64,000 bases of DNA from contig CBDCDC010000002.1 in NCBI GenBank assembly GCA_965215195.1, forward strand, positions 3,680,001 to 3,744,000. The letters run 5' to 3'. The notes under the pieces are model-generated. The model was not told the origin of the DNA and did not search any database. It worked only from the letters and a program-made list of their open reading frames with translations. Source of the DNA: Candidatus Latescibacterota bacterium. Lineage in GTDB: Bacteria > Latescibacterota > UBA2968 > UBA8231. Shown one piece after another: positions 2-37,941 of the stretch (its first letter is position 1; every line of letters starts with the position of its first letter). A program made the position numbers and the translations under genes.

Positions 2-1045
2 GCCGACGACGACCCGCCGGAGGCTGTCGATCATCATTTCTTCCCTCAGCGCATTGACCTGATCGCGCACCGCGGGTTCGCGGTCCATGCCACGACGCTT
101 GGCCTCCTCCACGACCAGTCGCTCCCGGGCCTTCGTGCGCAACCAGCTCTGAGGATCGCCCTCGGCCGCGGCCAAGTCGACGTCGGATGCCAAGAGCTGG
201 CCGCTCGCCCAAGTGCAGGGCGGGTCGGCCAGTGGCTCACAGACTAGGCCATGCGCCTTCGCCAAGCTGTCGGCGAAGGCCTCGAAGACGCGCGTCCGCT
301 CGCGTACGCGGAACTCCTCGAGCACAACATCCCAGCGGCTCGCAATGTCGGCGGGGCGGCGGTCGACGAGGCGAAACACGTGAACCCCGTAGCGGGAGAT
401 CAGCGGTTCCGGGTAGGTTTGACCAAGCTCCAGAGACAGCACTTGCTCCCTGACCTCCGGGAGCACTTGGGATACAGACATGTAGCTAAAGTAGCCCCCC
501 AAGCCCCCGGTCTCGTGGTGGATTGAACGTTCGACGGCGAGAACATCTAGCGGCTCTCCCGCAGCGAGAGCCTCGAGGACACTCCACGCATCGGCCTCAC
601 TCGCCAGCATCACGTGCTGGAGCAGCACCTCTTCGGTGAATCCCGCTTCGATGGCGAAGGTCTGGAGGCCCGACGTGTCGAGCCCCGCGTCGCCAGCGAC
701 CTCGTCGAACAGGGTGCGCCAGAGGAGTTTGCTCTGTTCCTGCTCAAGAGCAGCTGCGATTCTCGGTGCTGCGGCCAGCTTCCTGCGTTGTCCCTCCAGC
801 ACCAGAAGCTGTCTGTCTATCATCGCATCGAGTAGCTGACGTCTCGCGTCGAGACTGGCGGGATCTTTGCCGCGATGGGAAGAAGCGAGCAGCGTTGGCG
901 CCATCTTGCTGTATGCCTCAACATCGATCGTATCTCGGCCAATGATGGCGACGACGATGGGCTCTGGATCGTATTGTTCGGTCTGTTCGCAGGCCAGCAG
1001 TCCCGCGGTTAGCAAGATAACGGCGCGCGATAAGACGCTCATCAT
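2..1045 (-). CDS. PpiC/parvulin-type peptidyl-prolyl isomerase lipoprotein (PrsA/SurA-like foldase), partial, runs off window start
   Basis: Absent from the ORF track because there is no stop in the window. Translated by hand from ATG 1045, which overlaps the upstream stop as ATGA: MMSVLSRAVILLTAGLLAC (lipobox) ... LLDAMIDRQLLVLEG (SurA-N-like) ... VLLQHVMLASEADA ... LAVERSIHHETGGLGGYFSYM ... PEPLISRYGVHVFRLVDRR (rotamase signature). Confidence 0.8.
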   Translation of the reverse strand, partial: MMSVLSRAVILLTAGLLACEQTEQYDPEPIVVAIIGRDTIDVEAYSKMAPTLLASSHRGKDPASLDARRQLLDAMIDRQLLVLEGQRRKLAAAPRIAAALEQEQSKLLWRTLFDEVAGDAGLDTSGLQTFAIEAGFTEEVLLQHVMLASEADAWSVLEALAAGEPLDVLAVERSIHHETGGLGGYFSYMSVSQVLPEVREQVLSLELGQTYPEPLISRYGVHVFRLVDRRPADIASRWDVVLEEFRVRERTRVFEAFADSLAKAHGLVCEPLADPPCTWASGQLLASDVDLAAAEGDPQSWLRTKARERLVVEEAKRRGMDREPAVRDQVNALREEMMIDSLRRVVVG

Positions 1046-3720
1046 TGACCAGTTCCGAGACCCGCAAACACGTCCACGAAGATCATCGTATTCGTGTCGG
1101 CATGTTCTCCGCGAACGCTGCGTCGCGTCCACCGCATGCCGATGTTCGCGGTCAGCTCGTAGCCCAGATACGCCGCCTGATTGGAAAACTGCGAGGCCAG
1201 CGTTAGGCGACTGAAGTCGTCTTGGTAGTCGACGGCACCACCCTCAGGGCGGCTCTTCAGGTTATTGAAAAGCTCGTACTCGGTGCCAAGACCGAGAGTC
1301 AGCTTCGGAGAGATGCGATAGCTGACGAGGAAGAAGAAGAGTTCCGCAAGATCGCGCGTGTGGCGCTCGCGTGGGTTGGTCGGCGTACGGGAAGAGAACA
1401 CCTGCTTCCACTGAGGCCACAGGAGCACAGTCGGTGTTGCCCAGAATTGACGATCGGCCCGGTTGATCAGGCCCAAGAACCGCTCGTCCTGCGTTCCCTG
1501 CGCCGCATCCCCCTGCTGATTGTAGGCGTCGTACTTGAGCTTCGTCTGCGTCGTGACGAACGGATTCCAGTCAACCTGAAGGTAGAGGGTGTTGATGAAG
1601 GTATCCTGCGCGATCAATGGATCGCTAAAGTCCTGCAGCGCACCGGCAGAGAAGGCCGGCTGCACCCATTGGATGAGATGGTCGGGGATGTCGTCCTTGA
1701 CTTTGCGGACGAACTCCATTAGCTGGATCGACAGACTGCGCTGTGGATACTCCTTCTTCAGCGTCAGCAGACCGTATGTGGAGACCGCCCGGCGGTCGCT
1801 GGAGTGCTGTTCCATCTGCAAGCGCCCCAACATGAGGCGGCTTTTCGGCATCAGTTCGACACCAGCGTAGAAGTTGCATCCTTTGCTGTCCCGCTTGTAC
1901 GGGTAGTCCGGTTCGGTGTCGTTCTCGAAACGGTCGATGATTGTATTGTTGTTCATGTCCGTGCCGAAGAGGAATTCGGGCGAATCGACGTGGTAGCGGA
2001 AGAACGGCTCGCTGTAGTCGGGCTGGTTGTTCTGGTTCTGATTGAAGTCGGAGATAAAGTCTTGGTTCTCGTCGAGGCCCGGAAACACCTCCCGATCGGG
2101 GAATTGATTCTGGTTTGGAAACAGGGCACTCAGATTCGCGCTGCGGCGGATCCAGTCCGGGAAGCGATCTTGGTCGTCGTTATCATCGACGAGTTCGTAG
2201 AGGTAATTCTCCTCGTTCTCGTAATCGATGAAGCCCTGCGAGTCCGGGATGAACATAGACGTCGAGTACCCCGGCTCAACGCTGAAGAGCTCCCCGTAGC
2301 CGAAGAAGGGGTACGCGATCTGCGATGCCGTGGCGTAATAAGCCTCGGACTCGTCGTGAGCGAGGGCTTGGTTGCTGCGAATGGTCTGGTTGGGGAACCG
2401 TCGGTTGCGCCGATTGCTCACGTACTCAGATCGGAGATTGAAGCCCCCCACGTCGCTGATCGCCAAGTTTACCCCTCGCAGCTCGTTGCTCGAAGGGATC
2501 CCGTACTGAAAGCGGATGAATCGCTGGTTGGAGGCATCGGTGACGTTGCCCTGCGCTTGGGCGACGGGCAGGAAGGCGGGTTCCAGCGTCGCGTTGGTCT
2601 GCAGGTTCGAGGCGACTTCTACGAGGTAGTCGTTGGCTACGACCAGCCCCACCTCAATTCGCTCGATCTCGCGGAAATCGGTGATCTCCTCATCGGGACC
2701 CGGCCGAAAATCCGTCTCAATGTTATACGTCAGGGTGACCGTATTGGAGCCACTGGCCTCTAGCAGGCCTTCGCGCGCGACCCCCCCTTCGATGATCGGG
2801 TCGATCTCGGGATGCTCGACGCCGTCGATGAAGATCTGCTCGCGGAGCAGCAGGGCGCCGCCGACGCCATCCTCGGGTGAGTCGTCTGACAGTCGCACGA
2901 TGAGCCGCTGGACATTGCCCGCATTCAGGCGACCGCCGAGGACGCCACGCAGCGAATTTTCGTCGAGGGAGAGGGCCGAGTTCTGGTGAAAGGTCGTCAT
3001 ATACCTTCCACCCAATGTCGCGAAATCGCCGACGGCCACGCTTCCGTTCAGGCCAACGAGTTGCGTGAAGGTCGTTTGTCGCGCCGGTCCTTGGTCGACG
3101 GCCACGGCCACGCGCCCAGGCGAATCGGCCCGCGCCGCTAGGACGCTTACTTGGTATTTATCGGTCTGGAAGTCCCACTGCAAACCGTCGAAAAGGGGCT
3201 TGGAGAAGGTGAGCGGCGTCATCGTAGTGCGAATGCCCTCGCCGATGGTCAGAGCGGTGTGGAACTGCCCCTTGGCCCCGGAGACCACGATGAGGCGATT
3301 GAACCACTGGCTGAAGTTTGGATCTTTCCAGATTCCGCTACCGAAATCCCGCGGATACTCATTCGTGAAGTTGTAGATGTTCCAGCCCTTGGTGAAGTAA
3401 TTGCCGTAGAGGTCGTAGTAGCGGTCGCCTTCGAGCTCGGTTCGCACATAGCGCCGGTACTGGTCCCGAGCATAGTTGGTGTAAGCACTCCCCTGCCAGC
3501 CGTATAGGGAGTAGAGTGCCTGGGGCAGATACCACTTCCGCAACGTTGGAACCAGTGTCTCGGGACTGATTCGGGCCCCTTCCGTGATGTAGGGATTGAA
3601 CAGACCAACTTCGACAGCTCGGCCTGGCGTCACTTGCAACAGCAGGACGGCTATAATGGAGCCGACCCAGTTGCGCTTCACGTCTAGCCCTTCCGTTATC
3701 TTACCGCCACGTATTGTCAT
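1042..3720 (-). CDS. Large exported hypothetical protein, probable outer-membrane beta-barrel with Asp/Asn-rich Ca-binding-like loops
   Basis: 892-aa ORF. Likely start is GTG 3681, followed by a signal peptide (IIAVLLLQVTPGRA-VE). Contains DDNDDQDRFPD, DENQDFISD and DMNNNTIID motifs. The C-terminal third has alternating amphipathic strands ending MIFVDVFAGL. Confidence 0.65.
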   Translation of the reverse strand: MTIRGGKITEGLDVKRNWVGSIIAVLLLQVTPGRAVEVGLFNPYITEGARISPETLVPTLRKWYLPQALYSLYGWQGSAYTNYARDQYRRYVRTELEGDRYYDLYGNYFTKGWNIYNFTNEYPRDFGSGIWKDPNFSQWFNRLIVVSGAKGQFHTALTIGEGIRTTMTPLTFSKPLFDGLQWDFQTDKYQVSVLAARADSPGRVAVAVDQGPARQTTFTQLVGLNGSVAVGDFATLGGRYMTTFHQNSALSLDENSLRGVLGGRLNAGNVQRLIVRLSDDSPEDGVGGALLLREQIFIDGVEHPEIDPIIEGGVAREGLLEASGSNTVTLTYNIETDFRPGPDEEITDFREIERIEVGLVVANDYLVEVASNLQTNATLEPAFLPVAQAQGNVTDASNQRFIRFQYGIPSSNELRGVNLAISDVGGFNLRSEYVSNRRNRRFPNQTIRSNQALAHDESEAYYATASQIAYPFFGYGELFSVEPGYSTSMFIPDSQGFIDYENEENYLYELVDDNDDQDRFPDWIRRSANLSALFPNQNQFPDREVFPGLDENQDFISDFNQNQNNQPDYSEPFFRYHVDSPEFLFGTDMNNNTIIDRFENDTEPDYPYKRDSKGCNFYAGVELMPKSRLMLGRLQMEQHSSDRRAVSTYGLLTLKKEYPQRSLSIQLMEFVRKVKDDIPDHLIQWVQPAFSAGALQDFSDPLIAQDTFINTLYLQVDWNPFVTTQTKLKYDAYNQQGDAAQGTQDERFLGLINRADRQFWATPTVLLWPQWKQVFSSRTPTNPRERHTRDLAELFFFLVSYRISPKLTLGLGTEYELFNNLKSRPEGGAVDYQDDFSRLTLASQFSNQAAYLGYELTANIGMRWTRRSVRGEHADTNTMIFVDVFAGLGTGQ

Positions 3721-3733
3721 TGGATCAACTTTC

Positions 3734-6085
3734 CTAGTAGGCTACGCTCACCAGCAGGGTTTCGGCCTCCGGCCCTGCGTCTGCCGGCACCTCTACGCGG
3801 CAGACGTAGACCCCGGGTAGCGCAGGCCGCTCGTTCACCATTCCATCCCACACTAGCTCCTGCGTCTCCCCTCGCCGACCGGAGACGACCCGGAGCAGGT
3901 GCCCTGCCAAGTTGTAGAGCCGTAGCTCAGCAGCGACTCTGGTGCGAAACAGATCAAAGGTAATGCGCAAATTGTCGTTGATTGCGTCGCCGTTTGGCGT
4001 GATGACGCGGCTCGATACGACGAGATTGCGGATAGTACCTCCTGTGGCTACATCCGGTAGGAAGACGAAGAGGGCCTCTCGGTCGGTGCGATCGGACTCG
4101 CCATCGCCGTCGTCGTCGACGTCCGGTGGCCTCACCTCTTGCCGATTATCCGGTTGTGCCGAGTTGGCCACAGATGCGAGGAAGCGGGTGGGATTGCTCA
4201 GCGGCCGCGCCGTGAACAGCACCTCTACCGAGTCCCGCAGCACGCGTCCGGGCATAGCGACGACGAGCGTGTCCGCGGTGGACTCGACCGATCCCGTGCG
4301 CTCTTCCCCATCAATGCGCAGCGACACATTCCGCACTTGTCCTGGCACGGGCAGAATCACGCGATCGAAGCCTCGATCCCGCGCCGTAAAGATCGGTTGC
4401 AGCACGTAGCGAAAGTCCTGCCACTCACCGGCGATCGCCTCCCGTGGATAGATCGCGGCCTCAACGCCTTTTTGCACCAGTGCTTCGTCGAAGTGAAGAG
4501 TCACTGACTTGAGTACCGGAGTGATTTGGGGATCGTCGGTCTCCAGACTCACCCGCATTCGCAATAGCTGTCTAGGGGTGGGCGACCGAAAGGGCTGGCC
4601 CGACGAAAGGTGCGGCTCACTCCAACCACTCCAGTCCGCACCTTCCTTGGGCACTTCGACGATCTCACCCCGCACCACTTTGGGCAGCTTGTTGTACTGG
4701 GCCTCGGTGATCGGCTCACCGTTTTTCTTAAAGAAAAACTGCTCCACATCGAGTTCGTTGCCCGTTCGAGTCTGCACGGTGATTCGGGTCCCCGGCGGGG
4801 TGTCGGCATCCCACGAGATCCCGGTGATGCTCTTGGTCCCCCCGAGGTCGATGAAGTCGGATGTCAAGGCCGCTTGTGCCGGGTAGCCAGCGGAATAGAT
4901 GAATACTTCCAGCATGATATAGCCAACCCTTCTGTCCTCGACGTCCATGTGGTTCCAGAACAAATAGCGGCCGACCCGATCTTGTAGCTGGTGGTCGAAG
5001 ACATAGCGTCCCGGTGCTTGGCTGTTGTCGACCAGCGAAACGCGCGTGTAGTCAAAGGGGCTGCGGAATGGATCGTCCCGGGCAATCGGCGTTCCGTCCG
5101 TCATCTCCAGATTATAGCCGGTGTTGGTACCGCCGATTCCGAACGTCGTTCGCCCTAGATGATTGGGAGGCCACTGGTAGAACACGATCCGGCTGACGTG
5201 GAAGAGGGCACCCAGATCCCACTCGAACCACATCCCCCCATCCTGCCAGAAGCGATTGAGGTTATTTGCAATCAAGGGCCATGCATTGTCCACGGTTCCA
5301 TCGCGCAGCTCCTCCACTTTTGGGCGTCCCGAGCGGATCGTCCCCCCCCGCTCAAAGGTCGTCAACGCGATATTATCGCCGATCGCGGTTACCTCGATCT
5401 CGGCCAGCGCCGCGTTTTCCCCGACCTCGTGGGGAAGGAAGCGGATGTAGTGTACGGGCATGAAGTCCAGCGACTTGCCCGTCACCAGATTCTCGCCGGT
5501 CGCAATGTCCCCGAAATCTTCAATCGACAAGGGAATGACGATCTCGACCAACTCGTTGGGCTCGGTGGTCGTGAAAACGCGCTGGAACCGCCAGACATCT
5601 GCGGATGAAGACACCGTGGAACCTTCGCTGACAAAAACCGAGAAATCCCGGAAGGGGCGTACGCCGAGGGTATCCGGAAAGACCAAGCGGATCTCCTTCA
5701 TCAGGACGAGGCGGCCCAAGTCGATGTGTATCCACGCATTGTCGGGATCGGCACCGGCGTCGGGCTGCCACCACGTCTCGCGGTCGTTATCGGCGAGCAA
5801 CCGGGCGTCGCGGTTGTTCGACTGTGCCGTCAGCCCGCCGAAGACCTCGCCACTTTTGCGGGTGGGATGCGAAAACAGGGACATGTCATCCATCGGATCG
5901 GTGTCCGTTCCGTACCACCCCAGCTCAACCTGCCCGTCTGGCCGCAACTGAATGGCCCCAATCGGGCTCGTCCACTCCTGCCAATCGCTGCGACGATCGA
6001 AGCGAAATTCATCGGCCGCGGCGCGACTGGACAGCAGCCATGCGGCCATGGCGATGATGCACAAGCTCGTTTTTGCCATAGTCAT
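3734..6085 (-). CDS. Secreted discoidin/F5-8-like domain protein with C-terminal TPNGD/FlgD Ig-like domain
   Basis: Signal peptide; LADNDRETWWQ..WIHIDLGR and WFEWDLGA..VSRIVFY discoidin-like motifs; WSGWS; C-terminal ITPNGDAIND..LYNLAGHLLR..VWDG..PGVYVCRVEV. Confidence 0.75.
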   Translation of the reverse strand: MTMAKTSLCIIAMAAWLLSSRAAADEFRFDRRSDWQEWTSPIGAIQLRPDGQVELGWYGTDTDPMDDMSLFSHPTRKSGEVFGGLTAQSNNRDARLLADNDRETWWQPDAGADPDNAWIHIDLGRLVLMKEIRLVFPDTLGVRPFRDFSVFVSEGSTVSSSADVWRFQRVFTTTEPNELVEIVIPLSIEDFGDIATGENLVTGKSLDFMPVHYIRFLPHEVGENAALAEIEVTAIGDNIALTTFERGGTIRSGRPKVEELRDGTVDNAWPLIANNLNRFWQDGGMWFEWDLGALFHVSRIVFYQWPPNHLGRTTFGIGGTNTGYNLEMTDGTPIARDDPFRSPFDYTRVSLVDNSQAPGRYVFDHQLQDRVGRYLFWNHMDVEDRRVGYIMLEVFIYSAGYPAQAALTSDFIDLGGTKSITGISWDADTPPGTRITVQTRTGNELDVEQFFFKKNGEPITEAQYNKLPKVVRGEIVEVPKEGADWSGWSEPHLSSGQPFRSPTPRQLLRMRVSLETDDPQITPVLKSVTLHFDEALVQKGVEAAIYPREAIAGEWQDFRYVLQPIFTARDRGFDRVILPVPGQVRNVSLRIDGEERTGSVESTADTLVVAMPGRVLRDSVEVLFTARPLSNPTRFLASVANSAQPDNRQEVRPPDVDDDGDGESDRTDREALFVFLPDVATGGTIRNLVVSSRVITPNGDAINDNLRITFDLFRTRVAAELRLYNLAGHLLRVVSGRRGETQELVWDGMVNERPALPGVYVCRVEVPADAGPEAETLLVSVAY

Positions 6086-6094
6086 CGCAAACTC

Positions 6095-8164
6095 CTAGTA
6101 GACGACGGGAACTGTCAGCAGTCGCCGTGCAGTCTCCCTTTGGGTATTTACCTCGACCAACAGCAGATACAGGCCTGGAGGGACTAGGTTGCGGTCATCG
6201 TCGAGACCATCCCAAGACACCTGCTGGGCCGATCGGCCCCGATCCTCAGCGGCCAAAATCGCAATATAGCGTCCGGCGACATCGTAGACCTTTACTGTCA
6301 CGTCTGCTTCGTCCACGAAGAGGACACTGAACTCGACTCGGATCTCGTCGTTCACCCGGTCCCCATTCGGGGTCAGGGCCGACTGCATCAGGCGGACCCC
6401 ATCGAGAACGGTCGTCCTCGCATCGCGCGAGAAGACCTGCAGACTGTTGGTGGAGACATCGTCCCTCGCGTTCCCCCCGTTCACCGACTGGGGCAGGTTG
6501 TCGCTGGCAGAGTCGAGGACCTCCCCGGCGAAGATCGTGGAAGAGGTAAAGAGAGAGGTCTCGAGGTCAATGCGGACGGGGCTATCATTGTTGCGCGACA
6601 CTCGGTTGGAGGTGAAGAAGATAAAAAGCTCACCGTCGGTGGCGATCCCATCCCCGGGCCACACGCTGTCGGGAGCCACCGAAACGAGGTCCGCATCGCC
6701 CATCCTCAGCCCCTCGAAACGAGTGCCAAAGGGGACCGTCAGCCGCACGGCATCAAATCCCTGTGAATCGCTGGCGAAGTCGGCCGCGATGTCGAAGTAT
6801 AGCTGACGGCGCTCTCCAATGGGGAATTCCGCCGGCTGGGCCTCAGGCGTCAGATCCGTCGGGGCCGCATCCGCCAAGGAGACCTCGCCGACGAGCGACG
6901 AGGCGAGCAATGGGGAAACTTCGAACTGGAGTGAATCGAGACGACCGATGGACAGCACATCGTCGGTCAGGAACGTCGCCCGGAACTGCAAATACTGTCG
7001 GCCGTCTGGGGATCGGTTCAACTGATTAGGGGAGCGATAGGGTGAAGACCACGGGGACCAGTTGGTCTCGTCGTCGAGGATGACACTGCGCTGATTGGGA
7101 TAGCGGACGGAGAGACTCTCCCGTCGGGGCAGGGAAGCTCGCTGCCATTCCGACGCTGTTACCTCCTTGTCGCGCCCGAAATCGTCTACGATGTAGTAGG
7201 ACCGGGGCGTGTCGTCGGTGCCGGAGCGCGTCTCCAAGAGCAGTCGGGCGACGCCTTCGGGGTCTTCGACGAGCGCGTCCGCTTCCCGGTCTCGTCGAAG
7301 CGAGCGGAAGGAGTAGGTGATCTCGCCGAAGTTGACGGGCTCATCGAGTGGAATGGCGGTGGAAACGTAATGTACGTGCGTCGGAACGCCCTCGCCGTAG
7401 ACCTGAAACTCGGCCATGCTGTAGAACTGGTCCGCCAAACTCAGATCGAGTCGGATGAATCTGGCCGGCTGCAGCGGAAAGCTGACATCGACTTGGCTTC
7501 TCGTATTGGACTTGGTTTCCTCGATGACGGTGGCGAGCGTCCGCTTGGGAATCGGCTCGGAGCCTTCGAGGAGAAATTCCTCGGCCTCGTTCTGTATTGA
7601 CAGACGATACGCCTGCGGCGACCCCTGCTTGTTGGGGATGCCGCGCTTATCGACACCCGATTGCCGAGGAAAAAATAGGATCCGGTTGATCGGCGTCTCT
7701 AAGACTAGATCGAAGGTCCAAATTTCTTCCTGCAGGCGCAGGATCTGGTTGAAGGTACTTATCGGCCCGTCTCCGACTAGCTGACGCAGTGAGATCGCTG
7801 TTTCGGGATCGCCGTCGATGATCACAGCCTCCTCGCGGCTGTAACCACCGTGCCAGAAACGCGGGTCAACGCCGGCTTTGAAACCAAAGGCCTTGCCTGT
7901 TGTCTGTCCCTCTGCCCAAGAGAGGCCGAATATATTGGCGAAGACCCCGGGGCCGACCATGATGTTCTCCCATGGCCGCAGCTCTCTGGGCTGCAATGCG
8001 CCCGGAGCGGTCGTGTCATCGAGGGCGACGGCCTCCTGACGCACTTGGGACCACGAGAAATCCCCTGCCACCCCGCCGATCTGCACGACGCGGGGCTGAC
8101 CGTAGGCCGCAACTGCTGGCGCGACCAGCAGGATCATTGCGGTAAGCATCATTCGCGTGTGCAT
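6095..8164 (-). CDS. Secreted discoidin-like protein with C-terminal TPNGD/FlgD Ig-like domain (paralogue)
   Basis: Signal peptide; IIDGDPET..FDL..INRILFFPR..ARFIRLDL..AEFQVYG; WSPWS; LTPNGDRVND..YDVAGR..WDGLD..PPGLYLLLVEV. Confidence 0.75.
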   Translation of the reverse strand: MHTRMMLTAMILLVAPAVAAYGQPRVVQIGGVAGDFSWSQVRQEAVALDDTTAPGALQPRELRPWENIMVGPGVFANIFGLSWAEGQTTGKAFGFKAGVDPRFWHGGYSREEAVIIDGDPETAISLRQLVGDGPISTFNQILRLQEEIWTFDLVLETPINRILFFPRQSGVDKRGIPNKQGSPQAYRLSIQNEAEEFLLEGSEPIPKRTLATVIEETKSNTRSQVDVSFPLQPARFIRLDLSLADQFYSMAEFQVYGEGVPTHVHYVSTAIPLDEPVNFGEITYSFRSLRRDREADALVEDPEGVARLLLETRSGTDDTPRSYYIVDDFGRDKEVTASEWQRASLPRRESLSVRYPNQRSVILDDETNWSPWSSPYRSPNQLNRSPDGRQYLQFRATFLTDDVLSIGRLDSLQFEVSPLLASSLVGEVSLADAAPTDLTPEAQPAEFPIGERRQLYFDIAADFASDSQGFDAVRLTVPFGTRFEGLRMGDADLVSVAPDSVWPGDGIATDGELFIFFTSNRVSRNNDSPVRIDLETSLFTSSTIFAGEVLDSASDNLPQSVNGGNARDDVSTNSLQVFSRDARTTVLDGVRLMQSALTPNGDRVNDEIRVEFSVLFVDEADVTVKVYDVAGRYIAILAAEDRGRSAQQVSWDGLDDDRNLVPPGLYLLLVEVNTQRETARRLLTVPVVY

Positions 8165-8177
8165 AAATACTTCCTTG

Positions 8178-10046
8178 TTAGTAGGACACCGCCACTATCC
8201 GCAGACGCTCAAACGTTTCGGTCTGTGTTTCGACGCGCAGGCGGACGATGTAGTGCCCCGGAGGCAGTTTGTGGGCCTCGGTCCATGTGGTTAGGTAGCT
8301 GCCTGCCGCCTGATCCTCTTGCAGGAGAGTGTGAATGAGCCGACCCGATAGGTCGTGCATCGAGACGCGTACTTGCGCTGGTTCGATGAGGAATACGAGG
8401 TCGTACTGCACTGTTAGGTCGTCGTTTAGCTCGTCTCCATTCGGGGTCACAACCCCGGCATCCAGATCGAATCGGCCGAGCGGGGCACCGAGAGAACCGA
8501 AGACGACGACGGAATTCGTGCCGAGCAGATTGGTGGCATCACCGGGAGCAACCCGCTGCGGAACTGCGCCGGCTGAATCCAAGAGCCAACCCTCGAACAG
8601 GGTTGTGTACCGCAAGGGCGTTGCTGTAAACCGCACAAAGAGCGTGGCGTTGCTCTCGGCCGTGATTCGGCGGCTCGGAAAGAAGAAAGACATGCCGCTG
8701 TCAGCGAAAACGATGCTGTCGACGGCCACTTCCTCTCGGTCCTCGCCGATCAACACCGATTCCAACTGAGCCGTGCCCGGCGTTGCGATGCGCAAGCCAT
8801 CGAACCCCTCGTCGCCGGACAGATCCGCAGCCAAGGCGTACTCGAAGGTCGCCGGCTGCCCCGTAGCGACGGTGGCCACACCTGCCTGCGGGAAGGGATC
8901 GCCGCTGCGCACGACCTCGGCTCGCGTCCTCTGGGCAAGGGGTGCCGAGTGGGTGAACTCTAGTGCATCTATGCGGATTACGTCGGTCGCAGTGCCCTCG
9001 AAGAAGAATCTGAACTGGAAGAAGGGCCTCGGCATCGGCAGAAAATCGAGGCTAATCTCGTAGGAACCCGTCGAATCAATTGTCACCGGATTTGACCACG
9101 CACTCCAGTTTGCGGCATCGTATCTCGTCGTGCGCTCGCGGTCGATGAGGTTCTGGTACGCCTCCTCTGAGATCTCCGTCTCACTGCCGGTTTCGAGATC
9201 GATCTGGAAATAGGACTCGGGAGAGGTGTCGTTGCCCGCCCGCACCTGGAACACCGCCTGCACCGGATCGTCCGCAGCCGCGTCGGGCTCGGTGGATACG
9301 CGGGTCGAGTGGACCGTTAGGCGACCAAAGTTGCGCACACCTCCTCCAGCGAAGTCAATGAAGTTGGAGACGTACTGAGCACGGGGCACAAACCCCCGGC
9401 CAAACACCTCAATCTCGGCGATGTCAAAGGGGTTCGGTTCCAGCGTTTCCAAGCGGATGTACCTGACGAGCTGGCGTGGAAACTCGGCCTCCGTCCGAAC
9501 CTCGTTGGAAATCTCGACCCGTGCCAAGGTCTCGTAGATCGGCCGCTCGTCTGCTCCAAAAGAGCGCCCGTCGCTAACCTTGACCTCGTAAGCCCGCAGG
9601 AAGGCGGTGCTATCTGTCGGGTTGGGAAAAAAGGCAATCCGTTCGACGGGAAACGAGGCACCTAAATCGAAGACGAAGATCCGGCCGTCCTGAGACTGGC
9701 CAGGAATCTGAAACCGCTCCCCAGTGGATGTGTTTGGGTTGCCGTCGACGAGAACGTTATTCGGCTGACCGTCGGCAACGCGCGCCCACACCCGTGCCCC
9801 GCCCTCGGGGATGAACTCGTCCGGGCCCGTTCCAACATCTGTCCAGCGAACAGTGGCGACGATGTTCTCGTCGGCTGTGAAGCCGGCCGGTAGCAGCAAA
9901 TCGGCCGCGACCTGCGCCCCCGCAGCCACTAGCTCCACGCTCTGCCAAGTGTCGCCGCCCCGTCCGATGCGCACGGTCTCGATCTGGCCGCCCGCATCAA
10001 TGCTCAGGAGAAACGTCAGGACAAGCGGGATGGCTGTCAGGAGCAC
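8178..10046 (-). CDS. Secreted discoidin-like protein with C-terminal TPNGD/FlgD Ig-like domain (paralogue)
   Basis: Signal peptide; LVDGNPNTS..FDLGASFPVERIAFFP..VRYIRL..IAEIEVFG; WSAWS; VTPNGDELND..HDLSGRLI..PPGHYIVRLRV. Confidence 0.75.
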   Translation of the reverse strand: MLLTAIPLVLTFLLSIDAGGQIETVRIGRGGDTWQSVELVAAGAQVAADLLLPAGFTADENIVATVRWTDVGTGPDEFIPEGGARVWARVADGQPNNVLVDGNPNTSTGERFQIPGQSQDGRIFVFDLGASFPVERIAFFPNPTDSTAFLRAYEVKVSDGRSFGADERPIYETLARVEISNEVRTEAEFPRQLVRYIRLETLEPNPFDIAEIEVFGRGFVPRAQYVSNFIDFAGGGVRNFGRLTVHSTRVSTEPDAAADDPVQAVFQVRAGNDTSPESYFQIDLETGSETEISEEAYQNLIDRERTTRYDAANWSAWSNPVTIDSTGSYEISLDFLPMPRPFFQFRFFFEGTATDVIRIDALEFTHSAPLAQRTRAEVVRSGDPFPQAGVATVATGQPATFEYALAADLSGDEGFDGLRIATPGTAQLESVLIGEDREEVAVDSIVFADSGMSFFFPSRRITAESNATLFVRFTATPLRYTTLFEGWLLDSAGAVPQRVAPGDATNLLGTNSVVVFGSLGAPLGRFDLDAGVVTPNGDELNDDLTVQYDLVFLIEPAQVRVSMHDLSGRLIHTLLQEDQAAGSYLTTWTEAHKLPPGHYIVRLRVETQTETFERLRIVAVSY

Positions 10047-10047
10047 G

Positions 10048-10770
10048 TCAGCGCACCGAAACGGTAGCGGGTGGCCGGTATCCCTTGAAGACGTCGCGTT
10101 GGAACCCGTAGGTCAGATCTACGGTCTCCACCGGCTCATCAGCGTAGTTGAAACGAACGGCAACGTCGTTGACGTGGACGGCCAACTCGGCCACGTCCGG
10201 GGGCATGGGTGGAAATACGATAAAGCCTTCGTACTCTTGGCCGCTGAAGATCATCTCGTCGGCATACATGTGGAGACGCAGCAGATCTTCACGCTCGCGC
10301 ATGCGCACATAGTAGTTCCCGGCCCAAGCCAACGCATACGCTCGGTAGTACTCACTGATTTCGAGGAATGTCAGGGGCTTGTAGAAACGCTCGCTGGCGG
10401 ATCGCAACTCAATTCTAGACGGATCGATCTTGACCTTCGGATACGCATAGTTTTTGATCCGCAGAAGGAATACGGTAAATCGCTGGGGCGTAAATGACTC
10501 TCCTGGGGGGGTCCAATCGCCGAATGTAAAGGGGTTAGTGGAGCGTGCTCCGTTGGCCGACTTTGTGGCGAAACTGCGGTTGAGCTCCGCGTCCGTCATG
10601 GGTCGCAGCGCGATATCGAGCCTCTCGAAGACGTAGGCCACCGATCCATCGTCGTGGACCACCATGTGTTCGCCTTGCTCGGACTTGGGCTTGGGCTGGA
10701 GAGGCCCCGGGAAGTAGCGCCCACAGCCGGACACAATCAGAATCAGCAGGCAGCTACAAATCGCTCTCAA
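10048..10770 (-). CDS. Hypothetical lipoprotein
   Basis: 240-aa ORF with a lipobox (LILIVSGC) and a beta-rich body; tightly coupled to the downstream gene. Confidence 0.75.
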   Translation of the reverse strand: MRAICSCLLILIVSGCGRYFPGPLQPKPKSEQGEHMVVHDDGSVAYVFERLDIALRPMTDAELNRSFATKSANGARSTNPFTFGDWTPPGESFTPQRFTVFLLRIKNYAYPKVKIDPSRIELRSASERFYKPLTFLEISEYYRAYALAWAGNYYVRMREREDLLRLHMYADEMIFSGQEYEGFIVFPPMPPDVAELAVHVNDVAVRFNYADEPVETVDLTYGFQRDVFKGYRPPATVSVR

Positions 10771-10800
10771 AACGATCTCTCCGCGCAGTGCAGTTTAGAT

Positions 10801-10833
10801 AAAATAAGGAGGGAGGACCGTCCTCCCTCCTTA
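10801..10833 (-). terminator. Rho-independent terminator or stabilising hairpin inside the operon
   Basis: Perfect 13-bp inverted repeat TAAGGAGGGAGGA-ccg-TCCTCCCTCCTTA, followed by TTTT on the minus strand, about 30 nt after the stop at 10866. Confidence 0.75.
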
Positions 10834-10865
10834 GATGGAACAAGAGCTGTGGAGCGTTTCCCTAC

Positions 10866-11759
10866 TTACCGCATCAGGGCTTTCACCGCACCCCAGCTAC
10901 TCCCCTCGACGGCTGTGGCGAACTCACCGGTGCTTAGCAAGGTAAATTCGGAGGAGAATTCCGAGCTATGGGCACCGCCGTTTTGGATGTGCGTCGTGAT
11001 TTGGTGCGTTCGGCCTCCACTGTCCGCCTCATTGAGGCTCAGTGACATGCCGATCGTCTGGCCTGCTTCAAATATCCAGCGGACGCTTGCGTCGCGGCCA
11101 TCTGGCTGGTACGGATCGTAGGCCTCCATGCGAACTTCGTAGTTCACCGTCACGTCAGCGGCCAAGTGCCCGGCACCCGCTGGCGAGACCACGACGGCCC
11201 CCTCAACAGCACCCGACTCGGGACCCCACTGCATCTCCGCAGGCTGGTTCCAGCGCAGGAAGGACACGAGGGGGTAACCTCCGGGACGGGCGTAGTGGAA
11301 GGTCCACTGCTGGTGTCCGGTGCGGAGGGCGTCAGCCGCCTCGTTCCACACGCCGTGGTCGGGATCCAGAATGAGCTCGAGATCGTCGTCATGCCAACCA
11401 TCGTTTGGCTCGGTGACATCGGCGTTCAGCGTGTCGTCGACGACGCGCGTGAATACGTAGAGCCGATTGTCCGGCTCCGGTGTCCAGCCGACGTGGTGAG
11501 CGATGTCGAGGTCGCTGCGCGCTGGAAACTCACCCTCGCCGATCACGTCGCACAGTTGGTCGCGACCGATGATGAAGTCCGGATCGTACCAGGCCCAGTC
11601 GCTGTCGTCGCCATCGGGGTTCATGGATTCTGGGTTTGGCACCTGCAGGGCAAAATAGCCGATACCGTTGCAGTTTTCGTATGCCGCTACCGGAGCCGCG
11701 AAACCTGCCAGCAGCACAGTGCCGAGGACTAGTGTGCTGAGAACTGCTTTCTTGTGCAT
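10866..11759 (-). CDS. Secreted CBM9/DOMON-like sugar-binding-fold protein with TAVExxSWGxxKA C-terminal tail
   Basis: Signal peptide AAPVAA-YE; DGDDSDW..GW..RLYVFTRVVDD..DDLELILDPD..YEVR..GQTIGMSLSLNEAD pattern; ends TAVEGSSWGAVKALMR; SD GAGGAG. Confidence 0.7.
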   Translation of the reverse strand: MHKKAVLSTLVLGTVLLAGFAAPVAAYENCNGIGYFALQVPNPESMNPDGDDSDWAWYDPDFIIGRDQLCDVIGEGEFPARSDLDIAHHVGWTPEPDNRLYVFTRVVDDTLNADVTEPNDGWHDDDLELILDPDHGVWNEAADALRTGHQQWTFHYARPGGYPLVSFLRWNQPAEMQWGPESGAVEGAVVVSPAGAGHLAADVTVNYEVRMEAYDPYQPDGRDASVRWIFEAGQTIGMSLSLNEADSGGRTHQITTHIQNGGAHSSEFSSEFTLLSTGEFATAVEGSSWGAVKALMR

Positions 11760-11884
11760 GAGATCTCCTCTCGTTCATGTCTTCACTTCACCCTTTGGCC
11801 GAAGGAAGACGGTAGATTGGCGCGGAAAAATGAACATCTACGCCGCTTGTGAATCAACCTATTATACAGGTTAGCGAAGGCAGT

Positions 11885-11913
11885 AATCTATGACGCGAGA
11901 GCAAAAATTTCAA
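11885..11913 (-). promoter_or_regulatory. Sigma70-type promoter of the 1-11.8 kb operon
   Basis: Minus strand TTGAAA-17 nt-TAGATT in the AT-rich divergent intergenic region. Confidence 0.5.
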
Positions 11914-12174
11914 GACCTTTTTTGACTGGTGAGTCAGTAAGGTGCAAGGCGTACCTAAAAACAATAACATCTTTTATAAACAACTATTTGTCGTTTCTTC
12001 TATTGGAAGCCACTGGAGGTGAAAGGGCCTATCGCATCGCGGCTCCGCAGTCGCAATTGATACGACCAAATTTAACCTCTACACGCGCTTGACTGCGTCT
12101 TTGAAAGGTGAGTAACTTGAATCTCCGCTTGGATTCGGAGTATCGACGCTCCACGGATTAACTTATGATGTACT

Positions 12175-13890
12175 GTGATGCACAGCAGCGATCCAAATGC
12201 ACAGACAAAGACGAGTCGATATCGTCGATGGATCCGTCGGGTGCTGCGAGTTGCTTTGGTGGCAGCACCCGTTTTGTCGGGCTGCAGCGACGATAGAAAA
12301 TCGGCTCTTACCCTCCCTCGATTCAGCGAGGTCGCGGCCGAGTCCGGGATCGAATTCCGCCACTTCAATGGTGCTGCCGGGTCCTACTACTATCCCGAAA
12401 CCCATGGCTCGGGTGCGGCATTTGCCGACTTCAACGGCGACGGCTTTCCCGATCTCTACGTCGTGAACAGCGCTGCTATCCACGGCGTACTCACCGCTCA
12501 TCTGCCTGCCAATGCCCTATTCGCGAATCAGACCGACGGGACCTTCGTCGATAGAGCAGCGGAGGCAGGGGTCGCCGACACGAGCTTTGGCATGGGGGTC
12601 GGCGTTGGGGACATCGACAACGACGGCCACGCCGATCTCTACGTCGCGAACTGGGGTGCCAATCGGCTCTACCGAAACTTGGGCCATGGCCGCTTTGCGG
12701 ACGTGACCGAACGGTCGGGAACCGGCGATCTGCGGGTATCGACGAGCACGGCCTTCGCCGACATCGATCTCGACAGTGATTTGGATCTGTATGTCGCCAA
12801 CGACGTGCGGATTGTCGGAGACGATCTCCCAGAGTGCTACCGCGGACTGATTCGGATCTACTGTGGCCCCGGTGCCTACCCCGGCGATTCCGGGTCTCTG
12901 TTCCGCAACGACGGCGACCTCCGTTTCACAGATATCACCGACTCAATGGGTGTCTGGAGCGAAGAAGGTCGGCAGCTAGGCGTGGCCTTCGCCGACTACG
13001 ACGATGACGGCGACCCCGATCTCTATGTCGCCAATGACCACGAGCCAAACTTCCTGTTCCGCAACGACGGGTCCCGATTCGCCGAGGTCGGTGTCTCCGC
13101 TGGCGTCGCCACGAGCCCCGATGGTGCCGCGGAAGCGGGCATGGGCACCGATTGGTCCGACTACGATCGCGACGGTCGCCTCGACCTAGGCGTGTGCAAT
13201 TTCCAGTGGGAGCCCTGCCGGCTGCTGCACAATGCCGGGGCGGGTCAATTCGCAGACCACACCGCGCAGAGCGGACTGGGAGGGCCGACCTATCAAACCC
13301 TCACCTTCGGGGCAGATTTCATCGATGTCGACAACGACGGATACCCCGATCTGTTCCTCGCCAACGGCCACGTTGAGCCCAACATCGAGATTCTCGACAG
13401 CGCCGGCCCGCGCTATGCGCAGCACGACCAGCTCTTCCTGAACAATCGCGACGGCACATTCACCGACGTGACCGCGGCGAGCGGTCTGACGGCGTTCTCC
13501 GCGGGCGTGGGGCGAGGCTCAGCCGCGGCCGACTACGACAACGACGGCGATGTCGACCTGTTCGTGTCAAACAACAACCAACGCCCGCACCTTCTCAGAA
13601 ACGACGGTGGAAACCGAGCCAACTGGATTTCAGTCGAGGTACAAGGTACGCGGAGCAATCGCAGTGGAATCGGCGCGCGCGTCACCGTGTTCTCCGCTGA
13701 TCTACAGCAGATGGCCGAGGTACGGGGGGGTAGCAGCTACCTGTCGCACAACGATCTGCGACTGCACTTCGGCCTTGGTCGCAGGACAACGGTGGACCGC
13801 ATCTTAGTTCGTTGGCCATCGGGTGGATTGCAGACTGTGGGCCCCGTGCCGGCAAGGCGCTTTGTGCGAATCGTAGAAGGCGAGCTGTGA
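12175..13890 (+). CDS. CRTAC1 family (FG-GAP/VCBS repeats plus ASPIC/UnbV) protein
   Basis: Repeated ADFNGDGFPDLYVVN and GDIDNDGHADLYVAN motifs; C-terminal SNRSGIGARV..GSSYLS..LHFGLG..VRWPSG; possible lipobox VLSGC. Confidence 0.92.
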   Translation: MMHSSDPNAQTKTSRYRRWIRRVLRVALVAAPVLSGCSDDRKSALTLPRFSEVAAESGIEFRHFNGAAGSYYYPETHGSGAAFADFNGDGFPDLYVVNSAAIHGVLTAHLPANALFANQTDGTFVDRAAEAGVADTSFGMGVGVGDIDNDGHADLYVANWGANRLYRNLGHGRFADVTERSGTGDLRVSTSTAFADIDLDSDLDLYVANDVRIVGDDLPECYRGLIRIYCGPGAYPGDSGSLFRNDGDLRFTDITDSMGVWSEEGRQLGVAFADYDDDGDPDLYVANDHEPNFLFRNDGSRFAEVGVSAGVATSPDGAAEAGMGTDWSDYDRDGRLDLGVCNFQWEPCRLLHNAGAGQFADHTAQSGLGGPTYQTLTFGADFIDVDNDGYPDLFLANGHVEPNIEILDSAGPRYAQHDQLFLNNRDGTFTDVTAASGLTAFSAGVGRGSAAADYDNDGDVDLFVSNNNQRPHLLRNDGGNRANWISVEVQGTRSNRSGIGARVTVFSADLQQMAEVRGGSSYLSHNDLRLHFGLGRRTTVDRILVRWPSGGLQTVGPVPARRFVRIVEGEL

Positions 13891-15431
13891 GAGCACGTGC
13901 GTGGTTCCTTGCCTTAATGGCTCTCGTCGGGTGCGAAAGCCAACGCCCTGCTGCGGACGCGCCGCCCACAGCGGACGAGTTGGGGCGGTTGCGGCTAACG
14001 CATGAAAAGCGACTGCGCGAACGCCCCGGCGATCTCGAGACCCGGGTGTTGCTTGCCCGCGTACTGCTCGACTTGGGTCACCTCGATCAATCAATGGATC
14101 AGTTCCAAATGGTTCTTCGCTCGGATAGTCTGCACGTGGGGGCCCTGATGGGTCTCAGCGAGGTTCTAGCTCGGATCCGCGATCACGCGATGGCTCTCTC
14201 CTTGGCGAAGCGGGCTGTCGCGGCCAAGCGCAATGCGGAGACTTTGGAGAGGCTAGCGGTGGCGTGGCTGGAGGTCGGACAGCTCGCGAACGCCCAGTTT
14301 GCGCTCGCCGAAGCGATCGCGCTGGATCCGGCCCGCCCGACGCTTCACAAGTTGATGGGGGTGCTACTGGCCGCTCAAGGTGATGTAGCGGCAGCGCAGA
14401 CTTCGCTGGAGCGAGCGGTGGAACTGGATCCCACATCGCACGAGGCCAGCTTCGCATTGGGCGTTCTCCAGTGCGAGCGCCTACGTAGCTGTGCGGAAGG
14501 TTTGCACCTCCTCCAGCGAGCCATCGCCTTGGCACCGGACAGCGTCCGATACGAGGTAGCGGCAGGCCGCGCCCTCCTGCAGGTAGGACGGACCCGCGAG
14601 GCCCTACAGGCATTCTCCACAGCGGTCGATCTCGACCCCTCTTCGGTGGAGGCGCACGTCGGTCTGGGCGTGTCCCGAGCCAAGCTAAAAATGTACGTCG
14701 AAGCGGCCACCGCTCTTGAGAGGGCACTCGAACTCGACCCGGTGCATCCCGATGTCCGTCTTCAGTTGGCTTCCGCGTACCGCCATCTGGGTCGTACCCG
14801 GGACGCCGAAGAGCAGGACGCCGCCCATCGGAGAATCGAACCGCACGTGGCTAAAATCGAAAGCCTGCGTGCGCTGGCCCAGCGAGGCCGCAATCCCAAT
14901 GCACACTTCGACCTCGCTCGTCTCTACGCCCGCCTCGGTCACGACGCGGGAACCGTAAAACACCTGCGCGACGGCTTGTCCCTCCAGCCGGACAACGCCC
15001 GAGCTTGGCAGAACCTCGGCAATGCCCACGTCCGCTTGGGTCGTCCCGGCGAGGCGATCTCGGCGTACCGCCAAGCCCTGAACCTCGAGCCGGACTATGG
15101 CTTGGCGTGGTACAACTTAGGTACGGCCTACGCTACCAGAGGCTACATCAACCTAAGTCGCGAGGCGTACGAACGGGCTTTGGAGTTGTCCGAGCATTCG
15201 GCGGATGTTTTCATCGCGCTGGGGAACCTCGAATTGCAACAAGGCGATGCCCATGCAGCGGCCGAGCGCTACGAACAGGCGCTGGCCCAAGATCCCGATC
15301 TGCCATCGGCACAGCGGGGTCTCGTGCTCGCGTACCGGCAGGCCGGTGACTGGGCAGCGGCAGCTCAAGCCATCGCAACATTCAGGAACAAGGCGTCTCC
15401 GCCCTCTCCGCCACCGATGAAGGGCCCCTAG
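13887..15431 (+). CDS. Tetratricopeptide repeat lipoprotein
   Basis: GTG start overlapping the upstream TGA; LMALVGC lipobox; many TPR units (AWQNLGNAHVRLGRPGEAISAYRQALNLEPD). Confidence 0.9.
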   Translation: MRARAWFLALMALVGCESQRPAADAPPTADELGRLRLTHEKRLRERPGDLETRVLLARVLLDLGHLDQSMDQFQMVLRSDSLHVGALMGLSEVLARIRDHAMALSLAKRAVAAKRNAETLERLAVAWLEVGQLANAQFALAEAIALDPARPTLHKLMGVLLAAQGDVAAAQTSLERAVELDPTSHEASFALGVLQCERLRSCAEGLHLLQRAIALAPDSVRYEVAAGRALLQVGRTREALQAFSTAVDLDPSSVEAHVGLGVSRAKLKMYVEAATALERALELDPVHPDVRLQLASAYRHLGRTRDAEEQDAAHRRIEPHVAKIESLRALAQRGRNPNAHFDLARLYARLGHDAGTVKHLRDGLSLQPDNARAWQNLGNAHVRLGRPGEAISAYRQALNLEPDYGLAWYNLGTAYATRGYINLSREAYERALELSEHSADVFIALGNLELQQGDAHAAAERYEQALAQDPDLPSAQRGLVLAYRQAGDWAAAAQAIATFRNKASPPSPPPMKGP

Positions 15432-15436
15432 ATCAA

Positions 15437-22242: not shown

Positions 22243-22254
22243 GGACTCCGCCCC

Positions 22255-32513: not shown

Positions 32514-32526
32514 GGTGGCCCTCCCG

Positions 32527-34248: not shown

Positions 34249-34262
34249 GGCGGCCCCTCCCA

Positions 34263-35912: not shown

Positions 35913-35926
35913 GGCGACCCCTCTCC

Positions 35927-36031
35927 TCAGTGCAGCAGCGTCAGCTTGTGCGTCTCGGTAGCCCCATCGACCGAGAGCACCAACAGATACGTGCCCGACG
36001 CTTGGAACTGCCCGTCCCATCGGTAATACAT
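35927..36031 (-). pseudogene. 34-aa collapsed copy of the NHL gene (start plus end of the C-terminal domain only)
   Basis: SD GAGGAGG, then MYYRWDGQFQASGTYLLVLSVDGATETHKLTLLH*; near-identical to the 3' ends of the three intact copies. Confidence 0.75.
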
Positions 36032-36193
36032 AGCACGACCTCCTCGTCGATTAAAACCGCCGGTCAGACCAGCGGTCGTAGATGGGCATTTCTCTGGTGC
36101 GATTAAGCCGCTGGACTCAAGCGCACAGAGGCTTGTTGCGGCGGATTAACATAAATCCTCAAGCGATTTATAGCCACTGGTTCTCGTCCAAGT

Positions 36194-37864: not shown

Positions 37865-37872
37865 GGCACCCT

Positions 37873-37913
37873 AAAAAAACAAGGGAGGCAGATCGAAAGC
37901 GATCTACCTCCCC
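37873..37913 (-). terminator. Rho-independent terminator
   Basis: Minus strand GGGAGGTAGATCG-CTTT-CGATCTGCCTCCC followed by TTGTTTTTTT, downstream of the stop at 37942. Confidence 0.85.
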
Positions 37914-37941
37914 AAGTTAAATCCGAAAACTACCGGGCCAG

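Follow-up and report, generated by a model that had tools for sequence, protein, structure and literature searches.

Chaperone-usher operons place the major subunit first, carry an internal stem-loop, encode their own outer-membrane protein and their own folding helper, and occur as several operons per genome. In the secretion system known as type IX (T9SS), sprF lies adjacent to the gene for SprB, and the 10 PorP-like proteins of F. johnsoniae, which are 14-stranded FadL-type barrels, are considered specific to their cognate type B cargo (passages of PMC9143113). The T9SS translocon comprises a 36-strand SprA with a peptidyl-prolyl isomerase (PPIase) subunit, binding SprE and SkpA (passages of PMC10994853). 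SlpA, an S-layer/outer-membrane protein of Deinococcus, is a 30-stranded barrel with Asp metal sites in its pore insertions and may anchor the S-layer (passages of PMC9388160). Latescibacterota are widespread, uncultured and predicted to degrade polymers (passages of PMC4454575). We analysed a 64-kb window (the whole stretch of 64,000 nucleotides from contig CBDCDC010000002.1 of a Candidatus Latescibacterota bacterium), in which seven genes, g1 to g7, and two neighbouring lipoprotein genes evidently make up one copy of an ancient, modular and repeatedly duplicated Latescibacterota envelope cassette. The cassette is apparently undescribed; its core proteins, g6 and g2, fall outside described families, and its logic resembles that of known outer-membrane display and uptake modules.

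Seven co-oriented open reading frames (ORFs) on the minus strand fill positions 2-11913, and the two lipoprotein genes lie beyond them on the plus strand. The features are as follows.

11885..11913, minus: promoter-like TTGAAA-17-TAGATT, from a consensus scan.
10866-11759, minus: g1, secreted CBM9-like protein of 297 aa (PF06452 match), with a strong Shine-Dalgarno sequence and an ATG start.
10805..10833, minus: perfect 13-bp stem-loop, then TTTTAT, between g1 and g2.
10048-10770, minus: g2, lipoprotein of 240 aa (Cys16), lipobox VSGC, TTG start, without a family match.
8178-10046, minus: g3, secreted discoidin-domain protein of 622 aa with a T9SS-like C-terminal immunoglobulin (Ig) domain (C-terminal domain, CTD; TPNGD motif).
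6095-8164, minus: g4, paralogue of g3 with a CTD, 689 aa.
3734-6085, minus: g5, third paralogue, 783 aa, with a CTD and, in addition, a further discoidin domain at its N-terminus.
1042-3720, minus: g6, exported protein of 892 aa, without a Pfam or NCBIfam match.
2..1045, minus: g7, parvulin PPIase lipoprotein (SurA/PrsA-like), lipobox LLAC, cut by the window start, 348 aa visible.
12175..13890, plus: FG-GAP/ASPIC-UnbV beta-propeller lipoprotein (Pfam), lipobox VLSGC, divergent from g1.
13812..15431, plus: tetratricopeptide repeat (TPR) lipoprotein (Pfam), lipobox LVGC; true start probably downstream of the listed ORF start.

The conclusion rests on the recurrence and joint divergence of these genes. 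A scan with g6 as the query, through a genome collection holding one genome per species, confirmed 576 g6 relatives, and the best 80 loci were kept. They lie in 36 assemblies, with 64 loci titled Latescibacter- and 16 titled Gemmatimonad-, and up to five of them sit on one chromosome. Arrangements were counted in the 53 loci with full 10-kb flanks (full-flank loci). The colinear order g1-g2-g3-g4-g5-g6 is present in 30/53, and a further 7/53 keep this order but have additional genes separating g3 from g4, with the left end cut. A short form, g1-g2-g3-g6, accounts for nine loci, a divergent form with g2, g4 and g1 on one strand and g6, DUF6785/6784, g3 and g5 on the other for five, and other rearrangements for two. 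The TPR lipoprotein is found in 47/53 loci, the FG-GAP/ASPIC lipoprotein in 37/53, and the parvulin in 29/53 by BLAST and in more by Pfam. Recurrence in many genomes puts the arrangement far outside what chance would give. An earlier reading of the letters alone (the original prediction) had named Latescibacterota, Gemmatimonadota and Poribacteria as the groups in which to look for a conserved neighbourhood; the best 80 of the 576 loci come from assemblies labelled Latescibacter- or Gemmatimonad-, and no Poribacteria label appears among them.

Distances were compared in the 52 of the 80 loci that have near-complete g1, g2, g3 and g6, and these form eight g6 clusters. Pairwise distances follow those of g6 closely (r 0.97 for g2, 0.99 for g1 and 0.99 for g3), and for each of g1, g2 and g3 all 49 of 49 nearest neighbours belong to the same g6 cluster. 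The accessory genes do the same: r is 0.98 for the PPIase, 0.95 for the TPR and 0.89 for the FG-GAP protein, with nearest neighbours in the same cluster in 49/49, 55/57 and 44/46 cases, respectively. Identity between members of different g6 clusters is about 47% for both g6 and the FG-GAP/ASPIC lipoprotein, 28% for the TPR protein and 24% for the PPIase. By these measures g1-g7 and the FG-GAP/ASPIC and TPR lipoprotein genes evidently travel and diversify together, and the TPR, FG-GAP/ASPIC-UnbV and parvulin genes are assigned to the cassette. Conserved order and the co-inheritance of exported proteins, the foldase among them, also bear out the original prediction of one dedicated system. A quick maximum-likelihood tree of g6 from the window and 38 loci of the 11 genomes with at least two kept loci has seven clades with 100% SH-aLRT support and long stems, none of which holds a genome more than once. 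On this tree 33 changes are required to explain the genome labels, the minimum possible being 10, and copies from the same genome are maximally dispersed; the cassette types are therefore old paralogues. The window g6 is 45-55% and g2 41-55% identical to counterparts in other cassette types, and g1 and g3-g5 are 24-41% identical to theirs.

The genes are packed tightly, with intergenic spacers of 1 nt (g2-g3), 13 nt (g3-g4), 9 nt (g4-g5) and 13 nt (g5-g6); the sole sizeable gap in the g1-g6 run is that between g1 and g2, which holds the stem-loop. The stop codon of g6 overlaps the ATG of g7 as ATGA, and g7 is thereby predicted to be translationally coupled to g6. Each g1-g7 product has a single N-terminal hydrophobic segment (by eye in g5 and g6, where it falls below the scan threshold), and all cassette products appear to be exported, four of them as lipoproteins. 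Ratios of non-synonymous to synonymous substitution rates (dN/dS) against three orthologous loci are 0.055-0.20 for the six complete genes g1-g6 and lowest in g1 (0.055-0.10) and g6 (0.08-0.10); all six genes are under purifying selection. The original prediction had described a co-oriented, tightly spaced run with an export signal on every protein, from a 297-aa CBM9-like protein with a WG tail, through a perfect 13-bp hairpin after that first gene, to a parvulin lipoprotein, and each of these elements was found on the minus strand where it had been placed. It had the boundaries of the set too narrow: the set reaches past 11913 to the FG-GAP/ASPIC and TPR lipoproteins (12175-15431).

The large core protein g6 has no match in Pfam, NCBIfam, PADLOC, PDB sequences or, in protein mode, a plasmid collection, and g6 with 29 relatives (30 members) has no Pfam match even at E<=10. 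It has 648 homologues at E<=1e-3 among 8000 candidates scored; the best 120 are mostly 868-893 aa long (three are shorter or partial), all are named 'hypothetical protein' and none has a Pfam domain. Family length is near constant, at about 880 aa. Representative clusters of the wider superfamily, all unnamed, number 950 at an E threshold of 1e-3, falling to 669 at 1e-10 and to 306 at 1e-30. Full-length distant relatives of 860-1057 aa, with labels that include Ignavibacteria and Bacteroidota, align over 784 columns with an hhalign probability of 100%, and none of them was found in the flanks of the kept cassette loci. SlpA_C is detected in 7/33 distant relatives at 16.8-30.2 bits, below the cut-off of 35 (best E 2e-7), and the nearest named cluster in Atlas is DUF6029 'TonB-dependent receptor-like barrel' (0.89), which is a lead only. 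Pfam and NCBIfam give no Usher, PorP_SprF, Omp85/POTRA, LptD, Slam-barrel or SLH match for g6, and PDB sequence and profile searches with g6 and its distant relatives gave nothing, SlpA included.

The g6 sequence begins with a signal-like N-terminus and has no further hydrophobic helix. A hydrophobic-alternation scan finds 48 segments of beta type throughout, which fits an all-beta protein and is not specific for a membrane barrel; mean-field direct-coupling analysis of 275 g6 sequences (Neff about 145) was uninformative, with similar maxima for antiparallel and parallel ladders (21.7 vs 17.6). Invariant Asp/Asn-rich motifs are DDNDDQDRFPDW, FPGxDENxDxxSDFNQNxNxxPDY and GxDMNNNxIDRFE, the last of which would fit the EF-hand-type loop pattern DxNxNxxxDxxE. 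We consider that g6 is probably a large outer-membrane barrel. Two further ideas about g6 were set aside: a candidate TonB box near the mature N-terminus (SPETLVPT) is replaced in some subfamilies and absent from distant relatives, and a relation to LptD received a probability of 0.08% when the g6 alignment was compared with E. coli LptD by hhalign. In three related loci (L040 at 12975-15821, L038 and L042), g6 is followed by an outer-membrane-type protein of about 900-950 aa that lies outside the conserved core; this Omp85-like neighbour ends in ...RAGFLF, unlike g6.

The partner lipoprotein g2 has no Pfam, NCBIfam or PDB-sequence match and 282 homologues, none of them named. Its alignment has invariant residues directly after the lipid Cys (CGRYFxGP), and Atlas gives weak leads only, to DUF4352 and LssY_C, which are Ig-like lipoprotein families.

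The three proteins encoded between g2 and g6 share low mutual identity (g3-g4 29%, the other two pairs 25%), and their CTDs match CHU_C, FlgD_ig or Por_Secre_tail weakly. In g3, F5_F8_type_C is found at E 1.2e-6, the T9SS type A model TIGR04183 at 23.9 bits (cut-off 23) and CHU_C at 17.3 bits; g4 has CHU_C at 27.0 bits (cut-off 27) and FlgD_ig at E 4.2e-5; g5 has F5_F8_type_C_2 at 27.8 bits and CHU_C at 23.0 bits (E 8.6e-5). The type B model TIGR04131 reaches 19-20 bits for the window CTDs against a cut-off of 35, and PDB sequence and profile searches with g3 and g5 gave nothing. Among relatives, a CTD is detected in 20/23 and scores rise to 38.7 bits for CHU_C and 44.8 bits for FlgD_ig. The original prediction of three discoidin-like paralogues with TPNGD CTDs is correct as to paralogy and to the CTDs in all three; an F5/8 type C domain is detected in g3 and g5 only, and it is present in 7/7 g5-type proteins from other cassette types.

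Alignment scores of CTDs average 181 for the same position in different cassettes (n=118), 148 for different positions in the same cassette (n=26) and 146 when both position and cassette differ (n=234). Each of g3, g4 and g5 keeps its own position within the cassette, and the three CTD paralogues appear to be non-redundant. Outside the cassette, the window encodes three NHL proteins whose CTDs share 32-34% identity with that of g4, and one of the three passes the cut-off of the T9SS type A model with 33.6 bits; PTAVEAVE occurs just ahead of the CTD in the window's NHL-repeat CTD proteins. The CTDs follow position rather than cassette and look like those on unrelated NHL proteins; a pathway shared across the genome therefore probably handles them. 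No T9SS core gene (SprA, PorV or GldKLMN) is present in the 64-kb window, the rest of the genome not having been searched. A 411-aa protein encoded among housekeeping genes (47765-49000, minus) has a weak C-terminal FlgD_ig/CHU_C domain and otherwise no family match.

Most of the 107 homologues of g1 carry PF06452 (CBM9_1) in precomputed annotation. The g1 C-terminus reads ...SSWGAVKALMR and belongs to a tail motif, [TS]AVE-xx-[ST]W[GA]x[IVL]K followed by 2-12 residues, that is joined to the rest of the protein by a tether. This tail is found in 104/107 homologues and 60/64 locus copies, and it is constant across cassette types; its receptor should therefore be conserved. Nine non-g1 ORFs of cassette loci also bear it. 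In one cassette type, several such ORFs, of about 170-320 aa, are interposed between g3 and g4 (L005, L007, L009, L014 and L069); the sole member of this group scanned, at 2684-3598 in L009, proved to be a PD40/TolB-like beta-propeller. Its tail suggests a portable signal that reaches beyond the CBM9-like family. Full-text literature, searched under several spellings, yielded no mention of the motif. We propose that g1 is an abundant binding subunit.

The stem-loop downstream of g1 (10833..10805) has 13 perfect pairs, a CGG loop and a following TTTTAT, with a folding free energy of -23.3 kcal/mol (z -3.55) that none of 200 shuffles equals. The stem is kept in 10/10 orthologues with a variable loop, and a paired A>G/T>C (compensatory) change is present in the orthologues L002 and L033. 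Perfect stems of at least 9 bp occur in 25/47 g1-g2 spacers and of at least 11 bp in 23/47, compared with a mean of 0.17 and a maximum of 2 stems of at least 9 bp in shuffled spacers. Eight different stem sequences are found across cassette types, and this pattern indicates that the structure is kept by function and not by sequence. The start of g1 has AGGAG and ATG, and the TTG start of g2 is conserved. We propose that the stem-loop acts as a partial terminator or 3' stabiliser that would give a high ratio of g1 to the remaining products.

Upstream of g1, sites of the TTGAAA-17-TAGATT type number 2 against 3.4 expected in the region scanned, a count that lends the promoter-like site no significance by itself; six orthologous loci nevertheless retain CTTGAA and the -10 region. 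The 5' leader of g1 is about 125 nt long (11760-11884) and includes a palindrome, AACCTGTATAATAGGTT, at 11872..11856. Neither the whole window nor the segment with leader and hairpin gave an Rfam hit above threshold. Orthologous loci share, in the divergent promoter region, a conserved block of about 40 nt; it lies upstream of the -35 element at about 12085-12125 and reads TTCAAGTTACTCACC...CAAAGAC...GTCAAGCGCGTG. This block and the leader palindrome are possible regulator sites.

Among the accessory proteins, g7 is weakly similar to E. coli SurA, and its orthologue in L002 has 564 aa and two parvulin domains. The FG-GAP/ASPIC-UnbV lipoprotein (12175-13890) and its relatives have SDD after the lipid Cys; in Bacteroidota this sequence suggests export to the surface. 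This lipoprotein could be an unrecognised enzyme or the real partner of g6.

Several genes in and near the cassettes point to sugars, as do the CBM9-like domain of g1, the discoidin domains of g3 and g5 and the second cluster described below. The DUF6785/6784 protein is polytopic, and in the window (20555-25451, plus) its gene follows those for two ABC (ATP-binding cassette) permeases and a solute-binding protein, overlapping the co-oriented gene for the sugar-type ABC binding protein by 4 nt. In five full-flank loci (e.g., L049, 12515-14455), the DUF6785/6784 gene stands between g6 and g3 on the same strand, and through this family the cassettes may be tied to sugar import at the inner membrane. 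In 16/53 full-flank loci there are ABC permeases no more than 10 kb away. A cassette that is multi-copy and sometimes in an operon with a sugar-ABC-linked membrane protein favours nutritional glycan capture at least equally with adhesion, which sharpens the original prediction of an adhesin or glycan-capture complex with its own platform and chaperone: the co-inherited exported set with its foldase is there, and of the two functions the nutritional one has at least an equal claim.

A second cluster in the window (30951-38994, minus) follows the same plan without g6 or g2. It is headed by a second g1-like gene (37942-38994, minus), whose 350-aa product is 25% identical to g1 and has the same tail, and which is followed by a 14-bp hairpin and a U-run. 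After the hairpin come a 556-aa SBP_bac_1-like protein of sugar type (36194-37864) and three NHL-repeat paralogues with FlgD_ig/type A CTDs (30951-36020); farther downstream are a sulfatase, two HAD hydrolases (phosphatases) and DUF3604.

We tentatively favour, while rating it somewhat below an even chance, a reading in which the product of the cassette is an outer-membrane complex that captures glycans and has g6 and g2 at its core. All parts would cross the inner membrane by Sec, and the SurA-like parvulin and the TPR lipoprotein would chaperone them in the periplasm. The g6 protein would form a large Ca2+-stabilised outer-membrane barrel with the lipoprotein g2 as its partner; g3, g4 and g5 would reach the surface through their CTDs and remain at g6, each at its own position. 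The stem-loop would permit an excess of g1, whose tethered tail would dock to a conserved site. The CBM9-like and discoidin domains would bind polysaccharide, fragments would be passed inward to ABC importers, and the several cassette types of a genome would have different specificities.

A number of observations weigh against this glycan-capture reading or against its parts. Many of the loci come from closely related genomes, and their counts are not independent. The CBM9 match of g1 is marginal (23.5 bits against a PF06452 cut-off of 23.4), and its best PDB match is a beta-xylanase chain at E 0.026. SlpA_C is detected in 0/30 members of the cassette's own g6 subfamily, with all matches elsewhere below cut-off, and the g6 C-terminus (...VFAGLGTGQ) has no terminal aromatic residue. 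Neither a plug nor a TonB-dependent receptor was matched and SPETLVPT is not kept across the g6 family, so that import would have no known energy source. The 16/53 loci with nearby ABC permeases may be background, because ABC genes are dense in this genome. No glycoside hydrolase or lyase is recognisable in the core cassette in the window or in six annotated loci; enzymes near cassettes are occasional (a sulfatase in 5/53 loci, a PL4 lyase in 1/6 annotated loci).

A possible but less likely alternative is a pure display or adhesion organelle, with g6 as an usher-like or PorP/SprF-like anchor and nothing imported; g1 would polymerise as the major subunit through tail docking, and g3-g5 would be minor or tip adhesins. 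The position of the putative major subunit first, the internal hairpin, the cassette's own chaperones and a core without enzyme or transporter would all suit such an organelle, as would the several co-diversifying copies per genome, a feature that E. coli fimbrial operons share. The outer-membrane-type gene also stands directly after the CTD genes, like sprB with its adjacent sprF (passages of PMC9143113). The organelle is harder to reconcile with g6, which matches neither Usher nor PorP_SprF models, with the lack of a PapD-like chaperone, and with the links to solute-binding, ABC and DUF6785 genes. Moreover, the tail is the same in all cassette types and on non-g1 proteins, and therefore cannot encode cassette-specific polymerisation.

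A bolder combination of these elements, which we regard as doubtful, would cast g6 and g2 as a giant outer-membrane translocon or anchor of a new class, one that assembles a hetero-oligomeric glycan-binding surface organelle by a pathway of FCB-group bacteria distinct from T9SS, chaperone-usher and SusCD. The organelle would consist of three fixed-position CTD subunits and an excess of the tail-docked CBM9-like subunit, helped by the SurA-like, TPR and propeller lipoproteins, and TAVE-xx-SWGxIK would act at the C-terminus as a signal of a new kind, for sorting or for docking.

It is unlikely that the cassette is an envelope-structural module, with g6 as an abundant SlpA/OmpM-like scaffold and g1 and g3-g5 as a coat or S-layer-like lattice. 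The sub-threshold SlpA_C matches of distant g6 relatives and the Ig-like domains on g3-g5 lean this way, and the Asp/Asn-rich invariant motifs of g6 recall the SlpA pore insertions held by Asp metal sites (passages of PMC9388160). Yet g6 has no SLH domain or coiled coil, the SlpA_C matches stay below cut-off and are lacking in the cassette subfamily, PDB profile searches miss SlpA, and four to five different cassettes per genome would be odd for one coat.

An improbable reading, too, is a biogenesis or translocation machine in the style of BAM (the machinery that assembles beta-barrels), Slam or the T9SS translocon, which would serve its own clients (the CTD proteins and the FG-GAP/ASPIC lipoprotein) and in which ligand-binding domains would be incidental. 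BamA-B-D-E with SurA form a similar accessory set to the one seen here, where a large outer-membrane-type protein is accompanied by propeller, TPR and small lipoproteins and a SurA-like parvulin, and E. coli has lptD followed by surA as the cassette has g6 followed by g7. The 36-strand SprA likewise has a PPIase subunit, and SprE and SkpA are its binding partners (passages of PMC10994853). Such a machine is at odds with the absence of a POTRA, Omp85, LptD or Slam-barrel match in g6 and with the hhalign result for LptD, and a general machine is not expected in four to five diverged copies that co-diversify with particular cargo. That there is no system at all and unrelated exported-protein genes lie adjacent by chance is scarcely credible in view of the conserved order, the co-diversification and the tight or overlapping junctions.

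No description of this gene set was found in the full-text literature, in a search that excluded most subscription journals, and full-text searches for Latescibacter with type IX secretion or T9SS and for UnbV with SusD found nothing. The terms 'discoidin' and 'cellulosom' are absent from the 2015 single-amplified-genome paper (PMC4454575), and its outer-membrane and secretion passages contain no such gene set. The original prediction had been unable to match the system to a named one, and hidden Markov model libraries and PDB sequence searches likewise place neither g6 nor g2; its usher and PorP/SprF comparisons do not stand as kinship, g6 matching neither model, and they are analogies of logic only because g6 is not a relative of those proteins. 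The cassette is a concrete candidate for the outer-membrane polymer-handling apparatus of Latescibacterota. It also offers a candidate new C-terminal tail signal and a clear case of a stem-loop that appears to be kept by function and not by sequence.

Compared with described systems, the cassette shares features with several. Like LptD-SurA and BAM, it has an outer-membrane-type protein gene followed by a SurA-like parvulin gene, with TPR and propeller lipoproteins as accessories; unlike them, it is multi-copy, and g6 has no sequence relation to LptD or Omp85/POTRA. With SlpA/OmpM it shares Asp-rich putative metal sites and a weak, sub-threshold resemblance between distant relatives of g6 and the barrel domain of SlpA, but g6 lacks an SLH domain or coiled-coil tether and its gene context differs. 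As in chaperone-usher operons, there are a first-gene subunit, a stem-loop, an own outer-membrane-type protein, an own folding helper and several co-diversifying copies; in contrast to them, the cassette has no usher, PapD-like chaperone (window and six representative loci) or pilin match, its helper is a parvulin, and its subunits are multi-domain proteins of 300-780 aa. T9SS type B loci resemble it in having genes for Ig-like-CTD proteins (TPNGD/CHU_C-type, with weak matches in the cassette) directly upstream of an outer-membrane-type gene, with several pairs per genome, and the T9SS translocon in having a PPIase and a TPR lipoprotein beside a large barrel, which is putative here (passages of PMC10994853). 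They differ from it in that g6, at about 880 aa, is far longer than a 14-stranded FadL-family barrel and has no PorP_SprF match, in that each anchor here has three position-specific CTD paralogues with an added new-family lipoprotein and a tail-bearing CBM9-like protein, and in that the host phylum is not Bacteroidota. The SusC/SusD loci are set apart by the lack of a Plug, TonB_dep_Rec or SusD match for g6 and g2, with no SusC or SusD match in the 64-kb window, by a core without carbohydrate-active enzymes, and by binding proteins that are proposed to be held by CTDs and the tail rather than by lipid. Like those loci, however, the cassette is multi-copy, its core (g6 and g2) is more conserved than its putative carbohydrate-binding proteins (g1 and g3-g5), and sugar ABC or solute-binding genes lie near part of the cassette loci.

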